From assembly GCA_043798445.1 (NCBI GenBank), contig JAZDOQ010000007.1:4437-68436 (forward strand): a stretch of DNA of 64,000 bases, given 5' to 3'. Under the pieces are notes generated by a model. It saw only the letters and a program-made list of their open reading frames with translations. It ran no database searches and was not told the DNA's origin. This document shows positions 46,323 through 59,713 of the stretch, piece after piece; position 1 is the first letter of the stretch; each line of letters starts with the position of its first letter. Made by a program: the position numbers and the translations under genes. This DNA comes from Candidatus Gottesmanbacteria bacterium (lineage in GTDB: Bacteria; Patescibacteriota; Microgenomatia; UBA10105; UBA927).

Positions 46323-47114
46323 CTATTTTAAAGAATTCTTCGTAAAATATTGGATCCACGTGGTAATGAATTGTATGACCATATCGGCGATCCGATACAA
46401 TATTCCATTCTCTTCCCTACTGGTTTTTATATTCTGTGCCGTAAATCCGTATATTTTTGTGTCGTCCTCCGGTACATAAGCGGTATTAAATGAATCATCT
46501 TTTTCTCTTTGTGTTGGTTTCGGGGCAGTGGAGATAATTGGTGTTGTTGTACTTTGAGGAGAGGGAGTGGATGTGTTTGTCGGTGTTCCGGAAAAGACAA
46601 TGGTTGTTCCGGTTTTTGTTCCAACTGCATTTGTGGTGAGTTCGATTACGGCAACAGCTGTGTCCGTCCGAAAAATGATGGAGGATATTTTTTTAGCTAT
46701 GGCTTTTATCGTTATGGTTGCGATGACACCGGAACCCCTTTTTGGCACATCTGGTGAAGCACCGACGATAAAGGCTATAACACCATTCGTTGCTGTGGCG
46801 GTTGACAATACTTCTGGAAGATATGGTCCGGGAACGATGTTGGTAATTGCAAGCGCTGTTTTATCATATATTAGGTACACTTCACTCGCACTAACTGTTT
46901 TACCATTGGTGTTCATGAGAATATTGAGCGTTGTTTCCTGATTAAGCACACCTGTTATTTGTGATGGACTTATGGATAAGGAAACAGCCGTATTAGTCGC
47001 ACGGCTTCGAACATCTTGCGTTATATTTATCGCAATAACACCAAGGACTAATCCACCAATGAGAAACAGTGTTGTAAGGAGAGAAGACATTCGAAAACGA
47101 GGTGTGTTTTGCAT
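46323..47114 (-). CDS. cohesin-like domain protein with N-terminal anchor or signal, S/T/P linker and conserved C-terminal tail
   Basis: A roughly 140-aa beta-rich module (VSLSISPSQITGVLNQETTLNILMNTNGK...GVIATITIKAIAKK) resembles cohesin. Its neighbour carries a dockerin. Confidence 0.5.
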   Translation of the reverse strand: MQNTPRFRMSSLLTTLFLIGGLVLGVIAINITQDVRSRATNTAVSLSISPSQITGVLNQETTLNILMNTNGKTVSASEVYLIYDKTALAITNIVPGPYLPEVLSTATATNGVIAFIVGASPDVPKRGSGVIATITIKAIAKKISSIIFRTDTAVAVIELTTNAVGTKTGTTIVFSGTPTNTSTPSPQSTTTPIISTAPKPTQREKDDSFNTAYVPEDDTKIYGFTAQNIKTSREENGILYRIADMVIQFITTWIQYFTKNSLK

Positions 47115-47118
47115 GCTG

Positions 47119-48534
47119 TTATTTATTAAAGTTTTTTACAATTACGTTGTAATCAAAAATATCCACCTTCCCGTTTTTATCAATATCGGAAGGAATAAAT
47201 CCCGGAATACCGGTTTTTTTGAAATTAGCCAGAAGTATGTTGTAATCGAGCATATTAACCTTTCCATCTCCATTTATATCTGCAGTTTTTTGGGTGGACG
47301 TTGGTGTTGCTGATATAAAGGGAGTGTTGACTGGTGTGTTCGTTGGCTTGAAGGTGGGGGTAGGTGTTTGAGTGGTGGTGGAGGGGATACCGACACACGG
47401 ACGGGTCGTATTTTCCCGAATCGCATCCATAACACCATAATAGGCTGGTTTACGTTGGTAGTTCTCATCAAACAGGAGGGGTTTGGCATCAGTGAGATTA
47501 GCATGATTTGGTAAACGAACCCAACTATATTTATCTGAGATGCCCCAGGTTCCTAGTGAAATACAGTTACTATGTGACAAACATTTTGCAGTGACTTTTT
47601 TATAGAGATTTGCAACATCTTCTTGGCTGTGTCCTGCTTGATATACATCCATTTCCGTAATGAGCACTTTCACATTGGCATCCTGCGCCTTTTGGAAATA
47701 ATAGTTCAAATCTTGAAGATATCCCGCGCTAAACTGTTCACCAGTTGTAGATATGAGATGGTTTTCTAACCCCACGGCATCGATCTGTATTCCTCTGGCC
47801 TTGGCGTTTTTGACATACTTGAAGAATGCATCTACCTCCACGATATGCATTCTATCCTTACCGACCGCATCATTGAGTACTAGAATAGCGTTTGGAGCTA
47901 TTTCATGGGCATATTCAAACGCTTTATCGATATAATCCAACCCGATGATGGATTTAAAACAATTAGTGCTCATTGCGCCGTTTTCCGAAAACGCTTCGTT
48001 GACAACGTTCCACACAGTAACAGTGTCGGCGCCATGTATCATGGTCGTTTGAATGTGGGTTTTCATTATTTCTAAAAGCTGTGATCTTGTCCATGTTCCA
48101 CAATTATTTTCGGTAAAAAGCCATGTCGGTGTATAAGAATTAGTCTTTCCATTGGTCCATATGAGATGGTAAAAATGTAGCTTCATGTTGTTGTTACGTG
48201 CAAACGTTATCACTTCATCAAAGCGGGTAAAGTCATTGAAACCCTGTGTTTTTTCTGTTTGACGCCATGTGTCCTGATATTGCATAAACATACTGGCGTA
48301 TTCTTGTGCTGCAATTTGTTTACACAAGGCAGCATTTGTCTGGTTTGATCTGAAACATTCGCCAATCAGCCCCGCAACGTTAAATTGGCGTTTTTTAGCG
48401 TATTGGCTTAATGTACTTTCTTCAGGTGGTGGAAGACCGCATTTGTTTGTAGTCGCATCACCAAGTACACTAGGAAAAAATGTAGAAAAAAGTATAGAGA
48501 TAGATGTAATAAGAGAAGTTATGAGGTTTGTCAT
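47119..48534 (-). CDS. glycoside hydrolase family 10 (endo-xylanase-like) with a C-terminal type-I dockerin
   Basis: GH10 motifs are WNVVNEAF (acid/base Glu) and VLITEMDV (nucleophile Glu). The dockerin is the duplicated Ca-loop DINGDGKVNMLDY...DIDKNGKVDIFDY. Confidence 0.85.
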   Translation of the reverse strand: MTNLITSLITSISILFSTFFPSVLGDATTNKCGLPPPEESTLSQYAKKRQFNVAGLIGECFRSNQTNAALCKQIAAQEYASMFMQYQDTWRQTEKTQGFNDFTRFDEVITFARNNNMKLHFYHLIWTNGKTNSYTPTWLFTENNCGTWTRSQLLEIMKTHIQTTMIHGADTVTVWNVVNEAFSENGAMSTNCFKSIIGLDYIDKAFEYAHEIAPNAILVLNDAVGKDRMHIVEVDAFFKYVKNAKARGIQIDAVGLENHLISTTGEQFSAGYLQDLNYYFQKAQDANVKVLITEMDVYQAGHSQEDVANLYKKVTAKCLSHSNCISLGTWGISDKYSWVRLPNHANLTDAKPLLFDENYQRKPAYYGVMDAIRENTTRPCVGIPSTTTQTPTPTFKPTNTPVNTPFISATPTSTQKTADINGDGKVNMLDYNILLANFKKTGIPGFIPSDIDKNGKVDIFDYNVIVKNFNK

Positions 48535-48589: not shown

Positions 48590-50125
48590 TTATTTTAAAG
48601 AAGTCTTCGTAAAATATTGGATCCACGTGGTAATGAATTGTATTACCGCATCGGCGATTCGATACAGGATTCCATCCTCTTCCCTATTTGTTTTTATATT
48701 CTGTGCCGGAGATCCATTTATTGGTGTGTCATCATTTTGTATGTTTAGGTTAGTAGCAATGGTGGGAATGTTCGTTAGTGTTTGCGTGGGTTTGAGGACG
48801 GAGGTAGGAGTTCGAGTAGAAGTGTATGTTGGTATTTGTGTGGGTTTAAGAGTGGGCGTAGATATTTGAGTGGGAGTAATGGTTGGTTTGATAGTAGGAG
48901 TTCGGGTGGGAGTGCGCGTTGGTGTGTTCGTTGGTTTGAATGTGGGTGTAGGTGTTTGAGTAGGGGTAGGGAGGTTGCCGACACATGGACGGGTATTGTT
49001 TTCCCGAATCGCATCCATGACACCATAGTAGGCCAGTTTACGTTGGTAGGTCTCATCAAACAGAAGCGGTTTGGCATCAGGGAGATTAGCAAATTGAGGC
49101 AGACGTGCCCAACTGTCTTTATCTGATATTCCCCAGACTTCTAGCGAAATACAGTTACTGTACTTTAAGCACATTGCGGTAACCTTTTTGTACAGTTGAG
49201 CAACATCCTCTTGGCTGTGTCCTGCTTGATACACATCCATTTCCGTAATGAGTACTTTGACATTGGCATTTTGTGCCTTTTGAAAAAAATAGTTAAGATC
49301 GTCTAAATATCCGGAGCCAAATTGATCTCCGTTTTTTGATAGAAGGTGATTTTGTAATCCTACCGCGTCAATGGGTACACCGCGATTTTTAGCACTTTTG
49401 ACATAGGTAAAAAACCCATCCACTTTCGATCGGAGCATCCGATCTCTGCCAAAAAATTCATTGAGAACCAAAAGAGCATGTGGTGTTGCTTGCCGTGCAT
49501 ACCGAAACGCTTTATCAATGTAATCCAATCCTATAATCTTATAGAAACAGTCCTGAACCATCGATCCATTCTCCTCAAACGCCTCATTCACCACGTTCCA
49601 GACAGTGACCATATCACCTGCATGGCTTATCATTGCCTGTATATGAGTCTTCATGATTTGATCGAGCTCCTGTTTACTCCAGTTGCCGCATTGACCCGGT
49701 TCAGGAAACAACCATTTGGGAGGATATGTGTTCTTGTTATGGTTTGTCCAAACAAGATGATAAAAATGCAGTTTGGAATTGTTGTTTCTGGAAAATGTTA
49801 TCACCTCGTCAAATTTGGTGAAATTGTACGATCCTCGGGTTTTTTCTGTGGTTGCCCAATGGTCTTGATACGGGACAAACATTCCAGGGAATTCATTGAT
49901 TGCGGTTTGTTGGCATGTTGTCCGAAGAGGATTATCAGTTTTGAAACATTGATTAATTTGTCCGCTGACATTAAAGTTTCGTTTTTGCGCATATTGACTG
50001 AGAGTGCTTTGTTCAGCCGGTGGGAGCTGGCATTTGTTGGTTGTTTGGTCACCGAGTACAGTAGGAAAAAATGTGGAAAAAAGTATAGAGATAGATGTAA
50101 TAAGAGAAGTGATGGAGTTTGTCAT
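48590..50125 (-). CDS. glycoside hydrolase family 10 paralog with a long Pro/Thr linker and the same C-terminal tail as the cohesin protein
   Basis: Contains WNVVNEAF and VLITEMDV, a roughly 70-aa (TPT/KPT)n linker, and the tail REEDGILYRIADAVIQFITTWIQYFTKTSLK. Confidence 0.85.
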   Translation of the reverse strand: MTNSITSLITSISILFSTFFPTVLGDQTTNKCQLPPAEQSTLSQYAQKRNFNVSGQINQCFKTDNPLRTTCQQTAINEFPGMFVPYQDHWATTEKTRGSYNFTKFDEVITFSRNNNSKLHFYHLVWTNHNKNTYPPKWLFPEPGQCGNWSKQELDQIMKTHIQAMISHAGDMVTVWNVVNEAFEENGSMVQDCFYKIIGLDYIDKAFRYARQATPHALLVLNEFFGRDRMLRSKVDGFFTYVKSAKNRGVPIDAVGLQNHLLSKNGDQFGSGYLDDLNYFFQKAQNANVKVLITEMDVYQAGHSQEDVAQLYKKVTAMCLKYSNCISLEVWGISDKDSWARLPQFANLPDAKPLLFDETYQRKLAYYGVMDAIRENNTRPCVGNLPTPTQTPTPTFKPTNTPTRTPTRTPTIKPTITPTQISTPTLKPTQIPTYTSTRTPTSVLKPTQTLTNIPTIATNLNIQNDDTPINGSPAQNIKTNREEDGILYRIADAVIQFITTWIQYFTKTSLK

Positions 50126-51996: not shown

Positions 51997-52641
51997 TTAG
52001 TTATTAAGAAAGGCTATGAGCCATCCAAACATGCTAAAACCTTTGCGTTCTGCTAAAACCCTTTCTTCAAGTGCTGTATTTTCCTGAATCAGAGCATCGA
52101 CTGCTTCCTGGATTTTTGTTTGATCACTGGTGTTAAATACTTGAATTTTAAGTTGCATCAGCTGCTCTATCCGTAACCGATTTTGTTCAACTTGACTGCT
52201 TAATGCTTTGACTGATCGGTGATCAGTGCCGGTAAGAAATCTTGAAAATCCGGATTTTGCGTCAATTTTTTGAATATTTTGGGTAATGACGTCATGAGCC
52301 AGCATTTGTCCTTTGACGACATCTTCTACCTGTTTTTTTACAATACTTCCCATGGAATAGGAAGATGAAAGCGCTTTCAGTGTCTCTGCAGCAACTCCTA
52401 CGGAATTGAGGGTTTGTGCTTGTTTTTCCTGTTCACTTGTTTGAACCATGAGGTTGCTTGCGCTTCCCTGATTTTGCGTTTGTACTTGATTTTTGTTTTG
52501 TACTTGAACTCCACTTGGCGTGACTGTTTTACTTATTTGTACCTGCGTTTGTTGCTGAGTCGCTTGAGCACCGCCTGAATTCGCTGCGTATATAGGCATT
52601 GCGATAATACCAGCAATAATAAGGCTAATGATATGTTTCAT
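51997..52641 (-). CDS. secreted Gln-rich coiled-coil protein with a hydrophobic C-terminus
   Basis: Signal peptide and a low-complexity Q/V/T region. No family recognised. Confidence 0.45.
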   Translation of the reverse strand: MKHIISLIIAGIIAMPIYAANSGGAQATQQQTQVQISKTVTPSGVQVQNKNQVQTQNQGSASNLMVQTSEQEKQAQTLNSVGVAAETLKALSSSYSMGSIVKKQVEDVVKGQMLAHDVITQNIQKIDAKSGFSRFLTGTDHRSVKALSSQVEQNRLRIEQLMQLKIQVFNTSDQTKIQEAVDALIQENTALEERVLAERKGFSMFGWLIAFLNN

Positions 52642-56382: not shown

Positions 56383-57180
56383 ATGGAAAAAAATATCACG
56401 TTATCGCTTTCTCATTTATTTGTTGATGTCCTTAAGGGAAAAAATATTCTTCACGATGTTTCGATTATTTTTGAGGCAGGAAAAACACACGTTATCATGG
56501 GGCCAAACGGAAGTGGGAAATCAACGCTTGCCCACGCGTTGATGGGAAGTTTAGAGTATGCTGTTAAAGGAAAAATCCTTTTCGGGAAAAAAGATATAAC
56601 CAGGATTCCTGCATCCGATCGGGCAAAACTTGGGATTTTTCTTGCATTTCAGTCTCCCATTGCTATCTCCGGCGTCAGCGTAATCAATTTGCTACGTACA
56701 GCATATCAGGAATTGCACCCGGATAACAAAAAAATAGATACGAAAATACAGAACCCCGTATTAGCTTCCAGGTGGAAATCTTCAGACATGACACTTTCTG
56801 ACTTATTGAAAGCAATTAATCGGTATGCGGCGTTGCTTCATATTGATCCACTGCTTTTAACACGAAGTATTCATGAAGGATTCTCAGGCGGAGAGAGGAA
56901 AAAGATTGAAGTGCTGCAGGCGTTAGTACTGCAACCGAAATTTGCGATATTTGATGAAATTGATACGGGACTTGATGTTGATGCGCTGCAAATTGTTGCA
57001 ACTGGCATTGATCTGCTTCGGAAAAATGGCACGGGTTGCATTATCATCACACACTATCAGCGGTTACTCAAATATCTTCAACCTGACACGGTCGTTGTGA
57101 TCAAAAATGGCAGTGTGTCTAAAACGGGAGATGCAGCACTTGCTAAAGAAATCGAGACAAAAGGTTATGGTTACTCATAA
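56383..57180 (+). CDS. sufC: Fe-S cluster assembly ATPase SufC
   Basis: Contains Walker A (GPNGSGKST), the signature FSGGERKK and Walker B (FDEIDTGLD). Confidence 0.95.
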   Translation: MEKNITLSLSHLFVDVLKGKNILHDVSIIFEAGKTHVIMGPNGSGKSTLAHALMGSLEYAVKGKILFGKKDITRIPASDRAKLGIFLAFQSPIAISGVSVINLLRTAYQELHPDNKKIDTKIQNPVLASRWKSSDMTLSDLLKAINRYAALLHIDPLLLTRSIHEGFSGGERKKIEVLQALVLQPKFAIFDEIDTGLDVDALQIVATGIDLLRKNGTGCIIITHYQRLLKYLQPDTVVVIKNGSVSKTGDAALAKEIETKGYGYS

Positions 57181-59713
57181 ACAATCATTCATGCCGGCTC
57201 CATACGCATTTGGATTTCATAAACCTGACAATTATGTATATAAATCTGGACAAGGATTGGATAAAGATGTTATCCGTGCAATGAGTACACAAAAAGATGA
57301 GCCAATGTGGATGTTGGAATTCAGATTGAAAAGTTTTGGAATATATTCAAAAAAAAAGATGCCTATCTGGGGACCATCGTTATCTGATATTCAATTTGAG
57401 AATTTGTACTATTATCTTCGGCCGGTGAAAAGTCAAGCAGAGAGGTGGGAAGAACTTCCTGATGCAATCCGTGATACCTACGAAAAAATCGGCATTCCTG
57501 AAATGGAGAAAAAATTTCTTTCGGGAGTGAGTGCTCAATGGGAATCCGAGGTTGTATACAAAAGCATTGAAAAAACACTCCATGAAAAAGGTGTCATATT
57601 CACTGACATGGATACGGCAGTGAAAAAATATCCGGAACTTGTAAAGCAATATATGGGAACACTTGTTCCTGCTGGCGACAACAAATTTGCAGCATTAAAC
57701 GGTAGTGTATGGTCCGGCGGATCGTTTATTTATGTTCCAAAGAATGTGTCTGTCGGCCTGCCGCTTCAGGCATATTTTCGGATTAATGCTGCCAACATGG
57801 GGCAATTTGAAAGGACACTCATCATTGCTGATGAGGGAAGCTTCGTTCACTACATAGAAGGGTGTTTTTTAAAAGGAACAAAAGTTAAAACCCGTTATTC
57901 TGAAAAATGTATTGAAGATATTCAGCCAGGAGATTATGTGTATACACACAAGGGGAGATATCAGCGAGTACGTCGTGTCATGACACGACCATGTGTAGAT
58001 AAAATATATACAATTAAATATTACGGTAACAGTGGTGCTACATTGCGAGTGACAAAAGAGCATCCGTTGTTGGTATGTAAACGCCAGAGAAAAGAATATA
58101 CCAATAGAGCCTTTAGTCCTCAATGGATTCGAGCAGGTGAATTATCAAAAGATGATTATTTGATGTATCCCATTATTAAACAGAAACAAGATAATCCGTA
58201 TGTCTATACTGACGGCGTATTTTCATATCAAGTGAAAAATAATATTTTGTCAGCCAATATACCATTTGGAAACGGAATACATATGAGTAATCGTTCTGTA
58301 AAATTTTTTCTTAAACCCGATTTTTTTAGACTTGCTGGGTATTTTTTAGCTGAAGGTCATATTGACAAAGAACATTACATTATGTTCACATTCAATGAAA
58401 AAGAGACAGAATATATACTAGATACAAAAAAAATAATTCGGAACTATTTTAAAAAAGACGTTATTGTAGGAAAAAATAGAAATCACGGAGTAACATTGAC
58501 ACTCTGTTCTACAATTGCGGCAAGGTTGTTTACACATATGTTCGGGATGACAAATAGGTCAAAGCATATTCCTGAATGGATGATAGCCGCAGAAAAGAGA
58601 TTCATCAAACAATTAATAAAAGGGATGTGGTTAGGGGATGGTAGTTATGATAAAAAGGGAAATATGTTCCGTTATTCATCGGTGACGAAACAATTGATTC
58701 AGAGTTTTTATGATATATTACTTAGATTAGGCATTGTTGCCTCTATAAATCTTCAGAAACGTGAACATCCTAAGCAGCCTATGTATTCAATTATTCTCTC
58801 GAGAGTATGTAATACAAAATTCAGTAACATTGTTGGAATGAGGGCAAGGAATGGAAGACATGAAGGTTCTCCATTCTATCTCAATTCAAATTATCTATTT
58901 TTATCAGTTAAGTCTATTACATCAAAAAAAATGAAAACTAAAGTATATAACTTCAGTGTTGAAAAAGATGAATCATACGTGGCTGAAGGAGTTGTTTCTC
59001 ACAATTGCACCGCACCAATCTATTCAACTGATTCTCTGCATAGTGCCGTTGTTGAGATTTTTGTGAAAAAAGGTGCGCGTGTCAGATATTCAACGGTGCA
59101 AAATTGGAGTACAAACGTGTATAACCTGGTGACCAAACGTGCTCGTGTTGAGGAAGAAGGGATAATGGAATGGGTTGATGGAAACATAGGATCAAAAATA
59201 ACAATGAAGTACCCGGCAGTTTATCTTGTTGGACGAAAAGCACATGGAGAAGTCCTTTCCATTGCCTACGCTGGAAAAAGACAAATCCAAGATACAGGAG
59301 GAAAAATGATGCATCTTGCTCCAGAAACAACCTCACAGATTATTTCAAAATCCATAAGTAGCGATGGCGGACGAACATCGTATCGGGGACTCGTTCATAT
59401 AGCGCGCGGTGCGAAGGGCTCACGAAGTAAGGTTGTATGTGATGCACTGATTGTTGATGACAAGTCTCGTTCTGATACGTATCCGAAGATGGATGTCCAT
59501 GAAACAAATAGTGTTATGGAACATGAAGCAAGCGTTTCAAGAATTTCCGATGAACAACTTTTCTATGTAACAAGCCGCGGCGTTTCTGTGAATCAAGCTG
59601 CATCCATGATTGTGAATGGGTTTATTGAGCCGATTGTTAAGGAGTTGCCGCTTGAATATGCAGTGGAACTTAATAGGTTGATGGATTTGGAAATGCAAGG
59701 ATCTATGGGGTAA
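57167..59713 (+). CDS. sufB: Fe-S cluster assembly protein SufB, interrupted by an intein
   Basis: The exteins join as ...FVHYIEG|CTAPIYSTDSLH..., the conserved SufB core. The extein total is about 467 aa. The start could be 57191. Confidence 0.93.
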   Translation: MVTHKQSFMPAPYAFGFHKPDNYVYKSGQGLDKDVIRAMSTQKDEPMWMLEFRLKSFGIYSKKKMPIWGPSLSDIQFENLYYYLRPVKSQAERWEELPDAIRDTYEKIGIPEMEKKFLSGVSAQWESEVVYKSIEKTLHEKGVIFTDMDTAVKKYPELVKQYMGTLVPAGDNKFAALNGSVWSGGSFIYVPKNVSVGLPLQAYFRINAANMGQFERTLIIADEGSFVHYIEGCFLKGTKVKTRYSEKCIEDIQPGDYVYTHKGRYQRVRRVMTRPCVDKIYTIKYYGNSGATLRVTKEHPLLVCKRQRKEYTNRAFSPQWIRAGELSKDDYLMYPIIKQKQDNPYVYTDGVFSYQVKNNILSANIPFGNGIHMSNRSVKFFLKPDFFRLAGYFLAEGHIDKEHYIMFTFNEKETEYILDTKKIIRNYFKKDVIVGKNRNHGVTLTLCSTIAARLFTHMFGMTNRSKHIPEWMIAAEKRFIKQLIKGMWLGDGSYDKKGNMFRYSSVTKQLIQSFYDILLRLGIVASINLQKREHPKQPMYSIILSRVCNTKFSNIVGMRARNGRHEGSPFYLNSNYLFLSVKSITSKKMKTKVYNFSVEKDESYVAEGVVSHNCTAPIYSTDSLHSAVVEIFVKKGARVRYSTVQNWSTNVYNLVTKRARVEEEGIMEWVDGNIGSKITMKYPAVYLVGRKAHGEVLSIAYAGKRQIQDTGGKMMHLAPETTSQIISKSISSDGGRTSYRGLVHIARGAKGSRSKVVCDALIVDDKSRSDTYPKMDVHETNSVMEHEASVSRISDEQLFYVTSRGVSVNQAASMIVNGFIEPIVKELPLEYAVELNRLMDLEMQGSMG
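57863..59005 (+). mobile_element. SufB intein (381 aa) with a LAGLIDADG homing-endonuclease domain
   Basis: Starts at Cys1 (CFLKGTKV). Block B is TKEHPLL. The LAGLIDADG motifs are LAGYFLAEGHI and LIKGMWLGDGSY. It ends VVSHN, followed by the +1 Cys (CTAP). Confidence 0.9.

Follow-up and report, generated by a model that had tools for sequence, protein, structure and literature searches.

In Escherichia coli, the last 18 residues of the exported enzyme PBP5 keep it at the outer face of the inner membrane and are needed for its proper localization (PMC2909392), and in-plane amphipathic anchors are a recognized class (PMC1564421). A long C-terminal in-plane amphipathic helix also keeps pestivirus Erns, an otherwise secreted viral glycoprotein, on the lumenal or extracellular side (PMC4536213). 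The anchoring scaffoldins of cellulosomes combine cohesin with an attachment module, SLH repeats in the SdbA, OlpB and Orf2p type and an LPXTG sortase signal in Ruminococcus ScaE. We analyzed a stretch of 64,000 nucleotides (nt) from the 73.6-kb contig JAZDOQ010000007.1, part of the metagenome-assembled genome of an uncultured Candidatus Gottesmanbacteria bacterium of the Microgenomates (hereafter, the window), in which a single-cohesin gene adjoins the gene of a dockerin-bearing xylanase, GH10-A, and shares a near-identical C-terminal tail with the gene of a second xylanase, GH10-B. The tail is a free-standing amphipathic helix that does not span the membrane, and it is a recent intra-operon copy between genes 2.2 kb apart. 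The system is best described in terms of known kinds: an anchoring scaffoldin with a PBP5-like amphipathic helix as its putative attachment module, plus a recent copy of that helix on an enzyme.

The three genes (GH10-B, GH10-A and the gene of a 263-residue cohesin-domain protein) are consecutive on the minus strand of the window, with the following features:

46323..47114, minus strand: cohesin-domain protein, 263 residues (MFH0749453.1; stop codon 46323-46325), laid out as N-terminal hydrophobic helix, TQDVRSRA motif, cohesin domain, Thr/Pro/Ser linker and tail
47022..47087, minus strand: N-terminal hydrophobic helix of the cohesin protein, residues 10-31, followed by QDVRSRA at 46998-47018
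46587..47000, minus strand: cohesin domain, residues 39-176 (Pfam PF00963, E 4.4e-4; 20.9 bits on the isolated domain, under the 24.1 cutoff)
46467..46586, minus strand: Thr/Pro/Ser-rich linker of the cohesin protein, residues 177-216 (AlphaFold predicted local distance difference test score, pLDDT, below 50; without secondary structure)
46326..46466, minus strand: tail copy 1, cohesin protein, residues 217-263, made up of the polar stretch DDTKIYGFTAQNIKTSREEN, the helix GILYRIADMVIQFITTWIQYFT (46341-46406) and KNSLK
47119..48534, minus strand: GH10-A xylanase, 471 residues counted from the ATG at 48534 (MFH0749454.1)
47122-47283, minus strand: C-terminal type I dockerin of GH10-A (Pfam Dockerin_1)
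48590..50125, minus strand: GH10-B xylanase, 511 residues (MFH0749455.1; stop codon 48590-48592), laid out as signal peptide, GH10 domain (49010-49900), Thr/Pro linker of ~87 residues (48734-48994) and tail
48593..48733, minus strand: tail copy 2, GH10-B, residues 465-511, made up of DDTPINGSPAQNIKTNREED, GILYRIADAVIQFITTWIQYFT (48608-48673) and KTSLK

The intergenic gaps, 55 nt between GH10-B and GH10-A and 4 nt between the GH10-A stop and the start of the cohesin gene, indicate that the three genes very probably form a single operon. Housekeeping genes on the opposite strand border it, an EngB-type GTPase upstream and a cyclophilin downstream. GH10-A matches both Glyco_hydro_10 (1e-61) and Dockerin_1 (7.9e-8) in Pfam; for GH10-B, Pfam returns Glyco_hydro_10 (2.4e-67) as the single domain, in agreement with an earlier, first-pass annotation of this DNA that had described GH10-B as lacking a dockerin. 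The locus shows no compositional anomaly, and we discarded a foreign-island reading on that ground.

The same annotation had reported that the cohesin protein and GH10-B end almost identically while being otherwise unrelated, and both observations hold. The peptides it quoted are present exactly, and blastn aligns 48733-48586 with 46466-46319 at 87.8% identity over 148 nt, with 90% identity over the last 120 nt in an ungapped comparison. Of the 41 protein residues compared, 35 are identical, and the tblastn E value of ~1e-20 (within the window) means that the similarity is not due to chance. The consensus consists of a polar part, DDT..AQNIKT[S/N]REE[N/D], followed by GILYRIAD[M/A]VIQFITTWIQYFT and then K[N/T]SLK. 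The similar segment runs from 'DDT' in the linker to 4 nt beyond the stop codon; the upstream linkers, the downstream DNA and the remainder of the two proteins are unrelated. The 64-kb window holds these two copies and no third. Frame, length, stop position and every residue of the hydrophobic face are kept in both, the four substitutions within AQNIK...SLK are all conservative (S/N, N/D, M/A and N/T), and the tail follows a Thr/Pro-rich spacer in each protein.

The two copies are young. Nei-Gojobori estimates for the tails gave a synonymous divergence (dS) of 0.22-0.29, a nonsynonymous divergence (dN) of 0.06-0.10 and a dN/dS ratio (omega) of 0.2-0.34, and the dS between the bodies of GH10-A and GH10-B was 2.3, which is saturated. 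Because the dS of the tails lies far under that of the bodies, the tail was copied between genes long after the xylanase genes had diverged. On grounds of parsimony, the cohesin gene is the likelier original owner of the tail, and GH10-B would have received its copy in the place where relatives carry a dockerin.

Physically, the tail helix is strongly two-sided. Its hydrophobic moment is 0.60 at a mean hydrophobicity of 0.34 (Eisenberg scale); projected on a helical wheel, its polar side collects R, D, Q, T, T, Q and K, and the opposite, hydrophobic side, with I, L, I, V, I, F, I, W, I and F, is broad (~180 degrees). Aromatic residues account for 5 of the 22. Kyte-Doolittle scoring in 19-residue windows peaks at 0.95, and the Hessa translocon sum, taken unweighted, comes to +9.3 kcal/mol owing to R, D and two Q in the segment. 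Partitioning into the membrane interface is favourable on the Wimley-White scale, at -2.5 kcal/mol without counting helix formation. A single-sequence AlphaFold model of the cohesin protein places a helix at residues 235-261 (pLDDT 65-69) after the disordered linker, in a model whose overall pLDDT of 44.5 is too poor for a fold search and leaves the terminal helices alone usable. A C-terminus with a moment of at least 0.5 and a hydrophobicity of at least 0.3 occurs in no other of the 72 greedily called genes of the window. The first-pass annotation had spoken of a 20-residue amphipathic or hydrophobic helix and pointed to membrane-span and amphipathicity predictions; the computed scales uphold amphipathic and not hydrophobic, and the helix is too polar to span a membrane. 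The hydrophobicity values likewise rule out a transmembrane or stop-transfer segment.

A different C-terminus in the window deserves mention here. The gene at 51997-52641 (minus strand) encodes an exported, Gln-rich and probably coiled-coil protein of 214 residues that has no Pfam match and ends in a short hydrophobic segment, ...RKGFSMFGWLIAFLNN, perhaps a further type of C-terminus that associates with a membrane or the cell surface.

No collection searched yielded the tail sequence outside these two genes. When the two tails were modelled as a hidden Markov model (HMM) and searched exhaustively with HMMER against 1.84 billion cluster representatives, the cohesin protein itself was the single match, in a search where so short a profile is blind below ~50% identity and carriers inside 50%-identity clusters are not visible; GH10-B was not listed, presumably because it sits inside a GH10 cluster. 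Pattern scans for five different peptides gave nothing beyond chance matches restricted to the seeded peptide, both in GTDB species genomes (QNIKT[SN]RE, IAD[MA]VIQF and WIQYFTK) and in Joint Genome Institute (JGI) metagenomes (WIQYFTK, AQNIKT[SN]R and VIQFITTW), and the tail was absent from 45 GH10 relatives. A word-index protein search with the 47-residue tail also gave no match, a result that is uninformative because the tool missed the query's own protein, along with a 41%-identical orthologue described below. The HMM and pattern searches thus yielded no tail-bearing protein beyond the two genes, which on the first-pass annotation's own terms speaks against a proteome-wide sorting signal.

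Related loci of the Candidate Phyla Radiation (CPR) bear on both the cohesin assignment and the position of the tail. The full-length 263-residue protein, which NCBI names 'cohesin domain-containing protein', had no match in Pfam and none by phmmer among PDB sequences. The orthologues at two CPR loci, L092 and L096, exceed the Pfam Cohesin cutoff with 25.1 and 36.8 bits, and when a profile of four orthologous domains was run against PDB the top 13 matches were all scaffoldin cohesins, the best being 2vn5 and 1g1k (E ~5e-5). The assignment, weak from the window protein alone, is solid at the profile level once the orthologues are added.

The order of a GH10-dockerin gene followed by a cohesin gene is conserved at L092, L093 and L096. 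At L092 (GCA_964448085.1), P0006 (GH10 plus dockerin) is followed after a 4-nt gap by a 261-residue protein that is 41% identical to the window cohesin protein and shares its N-terminal helix, its cohesin domain and its Thr/Pro/Ser linker with 'DDSF'. The C-terminal sequence of this orthologue is GWVGGIAKFFSLIVSLVKQLFFPSGK, and its end is a different amphipathic helix, GGIAKFFSLIVSLVKQLFF, with a moment of 0.50, a mean hydrophobicity of 0.50 and a Hessa sum of +6.3, again non-spanning. An amphipathic helix at the C-terminus of the cohesin protein is therefore not unique to the window. At L093 (GCA_964429215.1), the GH10-dockerin gene is accompanied by that of a more distant cohesin protein. 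It has exactly cohesin plus, at its C-terminal end, three SLH repeats, which form the module by which anchoring scaffoldins classically bind the wall. At L096, the cohesin gene runs off the contig. The helix at L092 and the SLH repeats at L093, found at the same end, mark the C-terminus of the cohesin protein as an attachment-module position. The window cohesin protein itself has no SLH repeats according to Pfam.

On this basis we tentatively favour the view, by analogy with PBP5, that the tail is a small, portable, non-covalent C-terminal surface anchor, native to the cohesin protein and copied to GH10-B. Under this proposal, the cohesin protein, GH10-A and GH10-B would all be exported by the Sec pathway through N-terminal signal peptides; N-terminal hydrophobic segments are evident from sequence and hydrophobicity scales in both tail-bearing proteins. 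The aromatic-rich helix of ~22 residues would then lie flat on the external side of the cytoplasmic membrane, or on a different layer of the cell surface, and retain the protein, with the Thr/Pro-rich spacer (~40 residues in the cohesin protein and ~87 in GH10-B) spanning the wall. The tethered cohesin protein would bind the dockerin of GH10-A, and GH10-B would be tethered directly by its own copy of the tail, which recent recombination would have put on an enzyme whose relatives mostly have a dockerin or another C-terminal module. The first-pass annotation had proposed that the cohesin protein and GH10-B are anchored in the same way by a sortase-like route. Common anchoring remains plausible and has comparative support in the L092 helix and the L093 SLH repeats; the sortase-type handling is not supported.

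The closest likeness is to the anchors of PBP5 and PBP6 (DacA and DacC), which also sit on Sec-exported proteins as an aromatic-rich amphipathic helix of ~18-25 residues at the extreme C-terminus, too polar to span the bilayer and, in the PBP5 type, unprocessed. The PBP5 anchor has a moment of 0.50 and a hydrophobicity of 0.37, values similar to those of the tail. The two share no sequence homology, however; the tail helix follows a long Thr/Pro linker whereas that of PBP5 is packed under a beta-domain, and the host here is a monoderm-type CPR bacterium. Membrane binding of the tail is predicted by analogy. Compared with the anchoring scaffoldins, the window has a 27-residue amphipathic helix in place of SLH or LPXTG and comprises one cohesin and one dockerin enzyme, and it puts the same putative anchor on an enzyme too. 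Erns differs from the tail system in both sequence and context.

Several points weigh against this proposal. The tail carries a net charge of only about +1. The evidence of purifying selection on it is marginal, the synonymous excess having p = 0.035 over 38 codons, 0.086 over 41 and 0.045 over 47. Aligned with the window tail, the L092 tail scores 17, the same as the mean of shuffled sequences, and the similarity is therefore not significant; we treat the L092 tail as a positional and physicochemical equivalent only, and the helix counts as a conserved feature by position and physical chemistry in one orthologue. The history of C-terminal modules in the clade is also complex, which leaves the direction of transfer as a parsimony argument. 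The GH10 relatives inspected differ at their ends: seven have a dockerin, and others a Cys-rich module, a large additional domain or no module at all. This variety, together with the body identities (67% between GH10-A and GH10-B, 71% between GH10-A and the relative P0008), indicates that C-terminal modules were shuffled in the clade. Finally, should the cohesin protein retain its N-terminal helix uncleaved, that helix would already anchor it and make a second anchor redundant; an association between helices, considered below, would then gain weight.

This last point turns on the N-terminal helix itself. With a Kyte-Doolittle value of 2.42 and a Hessa sum of -1.8 kcal/mol, it is probably a Sec signal peptide with an S-R-A cleavage site, and its cleavage would make a C-terminal anchor necessary. 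The L092 orthologue carries 'NTQDTRSRA', the same N-terminal motif as TQDVRSRA in the window, and the conserved S-R-A, together with the SLH-bearing homologue, suggests that the helix is cleaved.

A related pattern recurs in exported CPR proteins, which have an N-terminal hydrophobic helix, an unusually long spacer and then a polar motif, exemplified by TQDVRSRA, NTQDTRSRA, SLKSQAGS, NRSQASG and NRISKAS. It occurs in the window at 46998-47018 (minus strand), at L092:11490-12275 and L096:2646-3242, and at the N-termini of the GH10 relatives P0009 and P0022. The recurring motif looks like a lineage-typical signal-peptidase site, and cleavage there bears on whether the C-terminal tail is the sole anchor. 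The signal peptides of the two xylanases (50051-50125 and 48460-48534, both minus strand) are unusual in their own way: they read MTN[S]ITSLITSISILFSTFFP[T/S]VLG, are Ser/Thr-rich and have no positive residue ahead of the hydrophobic core, which is unusual for Sec. If GH10-A began instead at a TTG that lies five codons further upstream, its signal peptide would gain an Arg.

Of the alternatives, an association tag fares best, although we consider it unlikely. The tails would pair, form a bundle or bind an unknown partner, so that GH10-B joins the complex of cohesin protein and GH10-A without a dockerin, or they would mediate oligomerization. A hydrophobic face of ~180 degrees is what helical bundles have, the near-identical tails sit on exactly the two proteins that would need to meet, and the strong N-terminal helix could already anchor the cohesin protein. 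Yet the tail has no clean heptad pattern, and the L092 cohesin protein has a tail without a visible partner, there being no second tail-bearing gene within the 20-kb segment. The SLH repeats at the same position in L093, too, favour anchoring over pairing.

It is rather less plausible that the tail is a neutral patch left by recombination or gene conversion, functionless in at least one host, probably GH10-B. Its restriction to two genes of one operon, by sequence and across the window and all collections, its youth (dS ~0.25) and the marginal evidence of selection (p 0.035-0.086) would all fit such a patch. Against it, both copies have kept frame, length and stop intact despite ~12% divergence, the hydrophobic face is fully preserved with conservative substitutions alone, the similarity stops at the stop codon instead of extending into the flanking DNA, and the L092 orthologue keeps an equivalent helix. 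The tail is thus probably more than a recombination patch.

We regard as quite doubtful a broader idea, in which CPR bacteria (Microgenomates) would use fast-evolving, lineage-specific C-terminal amphipathic helices as portable display tags moved by short recombination, possibly with unknown surface machinery or self-assembly into dockerin-independent complexes, the window tail being the first caught in mid-transfer.

The first-pass annotation had likened the tail to tripartite signals of the sortase or exosortase type, and a variant of that reading, a processed signal of a new lineage-specific type in which an unknown enzyme would cleave at AQNIKT(S/N)REE(N/D)G for attachment to wall or lipid, seems to us very improbable. 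LPXTG signals consist of the pentapeptide, a hydrophobic membrane-spanning segment of ~15-20 residues that halts translocation, and a positively charged end; exosortase-type signals have a signature motif, a transmembrane helix and a basic cluster, and occur on many substrate proteins per genome. The tail resembles the LPXTG and the PEP-CTERM, PGF-CTERM and GlyGly-CTERM signals in its C-terminal site, its upstream Pro/Thr-rich spacer and its terminal Lys, its layout of polar motif, helix and Lys-containing end is superficially three-part, the polar motif is kept between the copies, and CPR surface biology is poorly known. However, conservation of the polar motif is uninformative because the copies are recent, and the L092 orthologue lacks it. 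A helix with a Hessa sum of +9.3 kcal/mol cannot serve as the required stop-transfer segment. No LPXTG-like motif lies within 60 residues of the C-terminus in either the cohesin protein or GH10-B, and the ends KNSLK and KTSLK have two Lys without an Arg/Lys cluster. No NCBIfam model, curated C-terminal sorting-domain models included, matches the tail or the full-protein C-termini at E<=10, nor does any Pfam model match the tail at E<=10, which bears out the remark that the tail resembled no signal known to the annotator. The 20 neighbouring genes scanned (34.7-64 kb of the window; among them SDR, GT4, ZIP, EngB, cyclophilin, sigma factor, Suf and PFOR genes) include no sortase, exosortase or rhomboid gene, and such a signal would have two substrates only.

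Two further candidates were rejected. A degenerate half-dockerin (PF00404) is not supported, given that a dockerin F-hand repeat consists of a 12-residue Ca-binding loop and a helix, and that the tail has the wrong residues at the Ca-ligand positions (by inspection), no Pfam match at E<=10 and an alignment to three dockerins no better than those of shuffles. A shared 3' RNA element or terminator fails on fold z scores of -1.1 and -1.3 with no common structure, and neither tail segment contains a terminator-like site.

Other observations concern the xylanases and their relatives. The Thr/Pro linker of GH10-B contains a direct repeat (48804-48968, minus strand), 48968-48894 against 48878-48804, with 75% identity over 75 nt, which indicates that the linker grew by duplication. 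Five CPR GH10 proteins (P0008, P0009, P0011, P0013 and P0019) have a common Cys-rich end of ~45 residues in place of a dockerin, with the pattern RCY.YKDK..CE..CG......F.C.W.....C... and no Pfam domain recorded; this end may represent a compact, disulfide-rich module for binding or anchoring. The amphipathic end of P0022 was considered as a relative of the tail and rejected, being unrelated in sequence and not common to its neighbours. The loci of the closest GH10 relatives, P0008 and P0005, contained neither a cohesin gene recognized by Pfam nor any sequence matching one of the tails. Elsewhere in the window, a SufB/SufD-family gene (57107-59713, plus strand) is broken by an intein with a LAGLIDADG homing-endonuclease domain; Pfam gives SUFBD_core in two stretches, Hint_2, Intein_splicing and LAGLIDADG_3.

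The tail reveals no new sorting pathway, and its importance is local, to the surface biology of CPR bacteria and to module shuffling among glycoside hydrolases. If the tail is indeed an anchor, the operon would encode a minimal CPR 'mini-cellulosome' whose scaffold is held by a 27-residue amphipathic helix, with neither SLH nor a sortase signal, and the tail might be useful to engineers as a display tag of very small size. The re-use of the same helix to tether a second xylanase, where relatives have a dockerin, would then be a compact example of module exchange.

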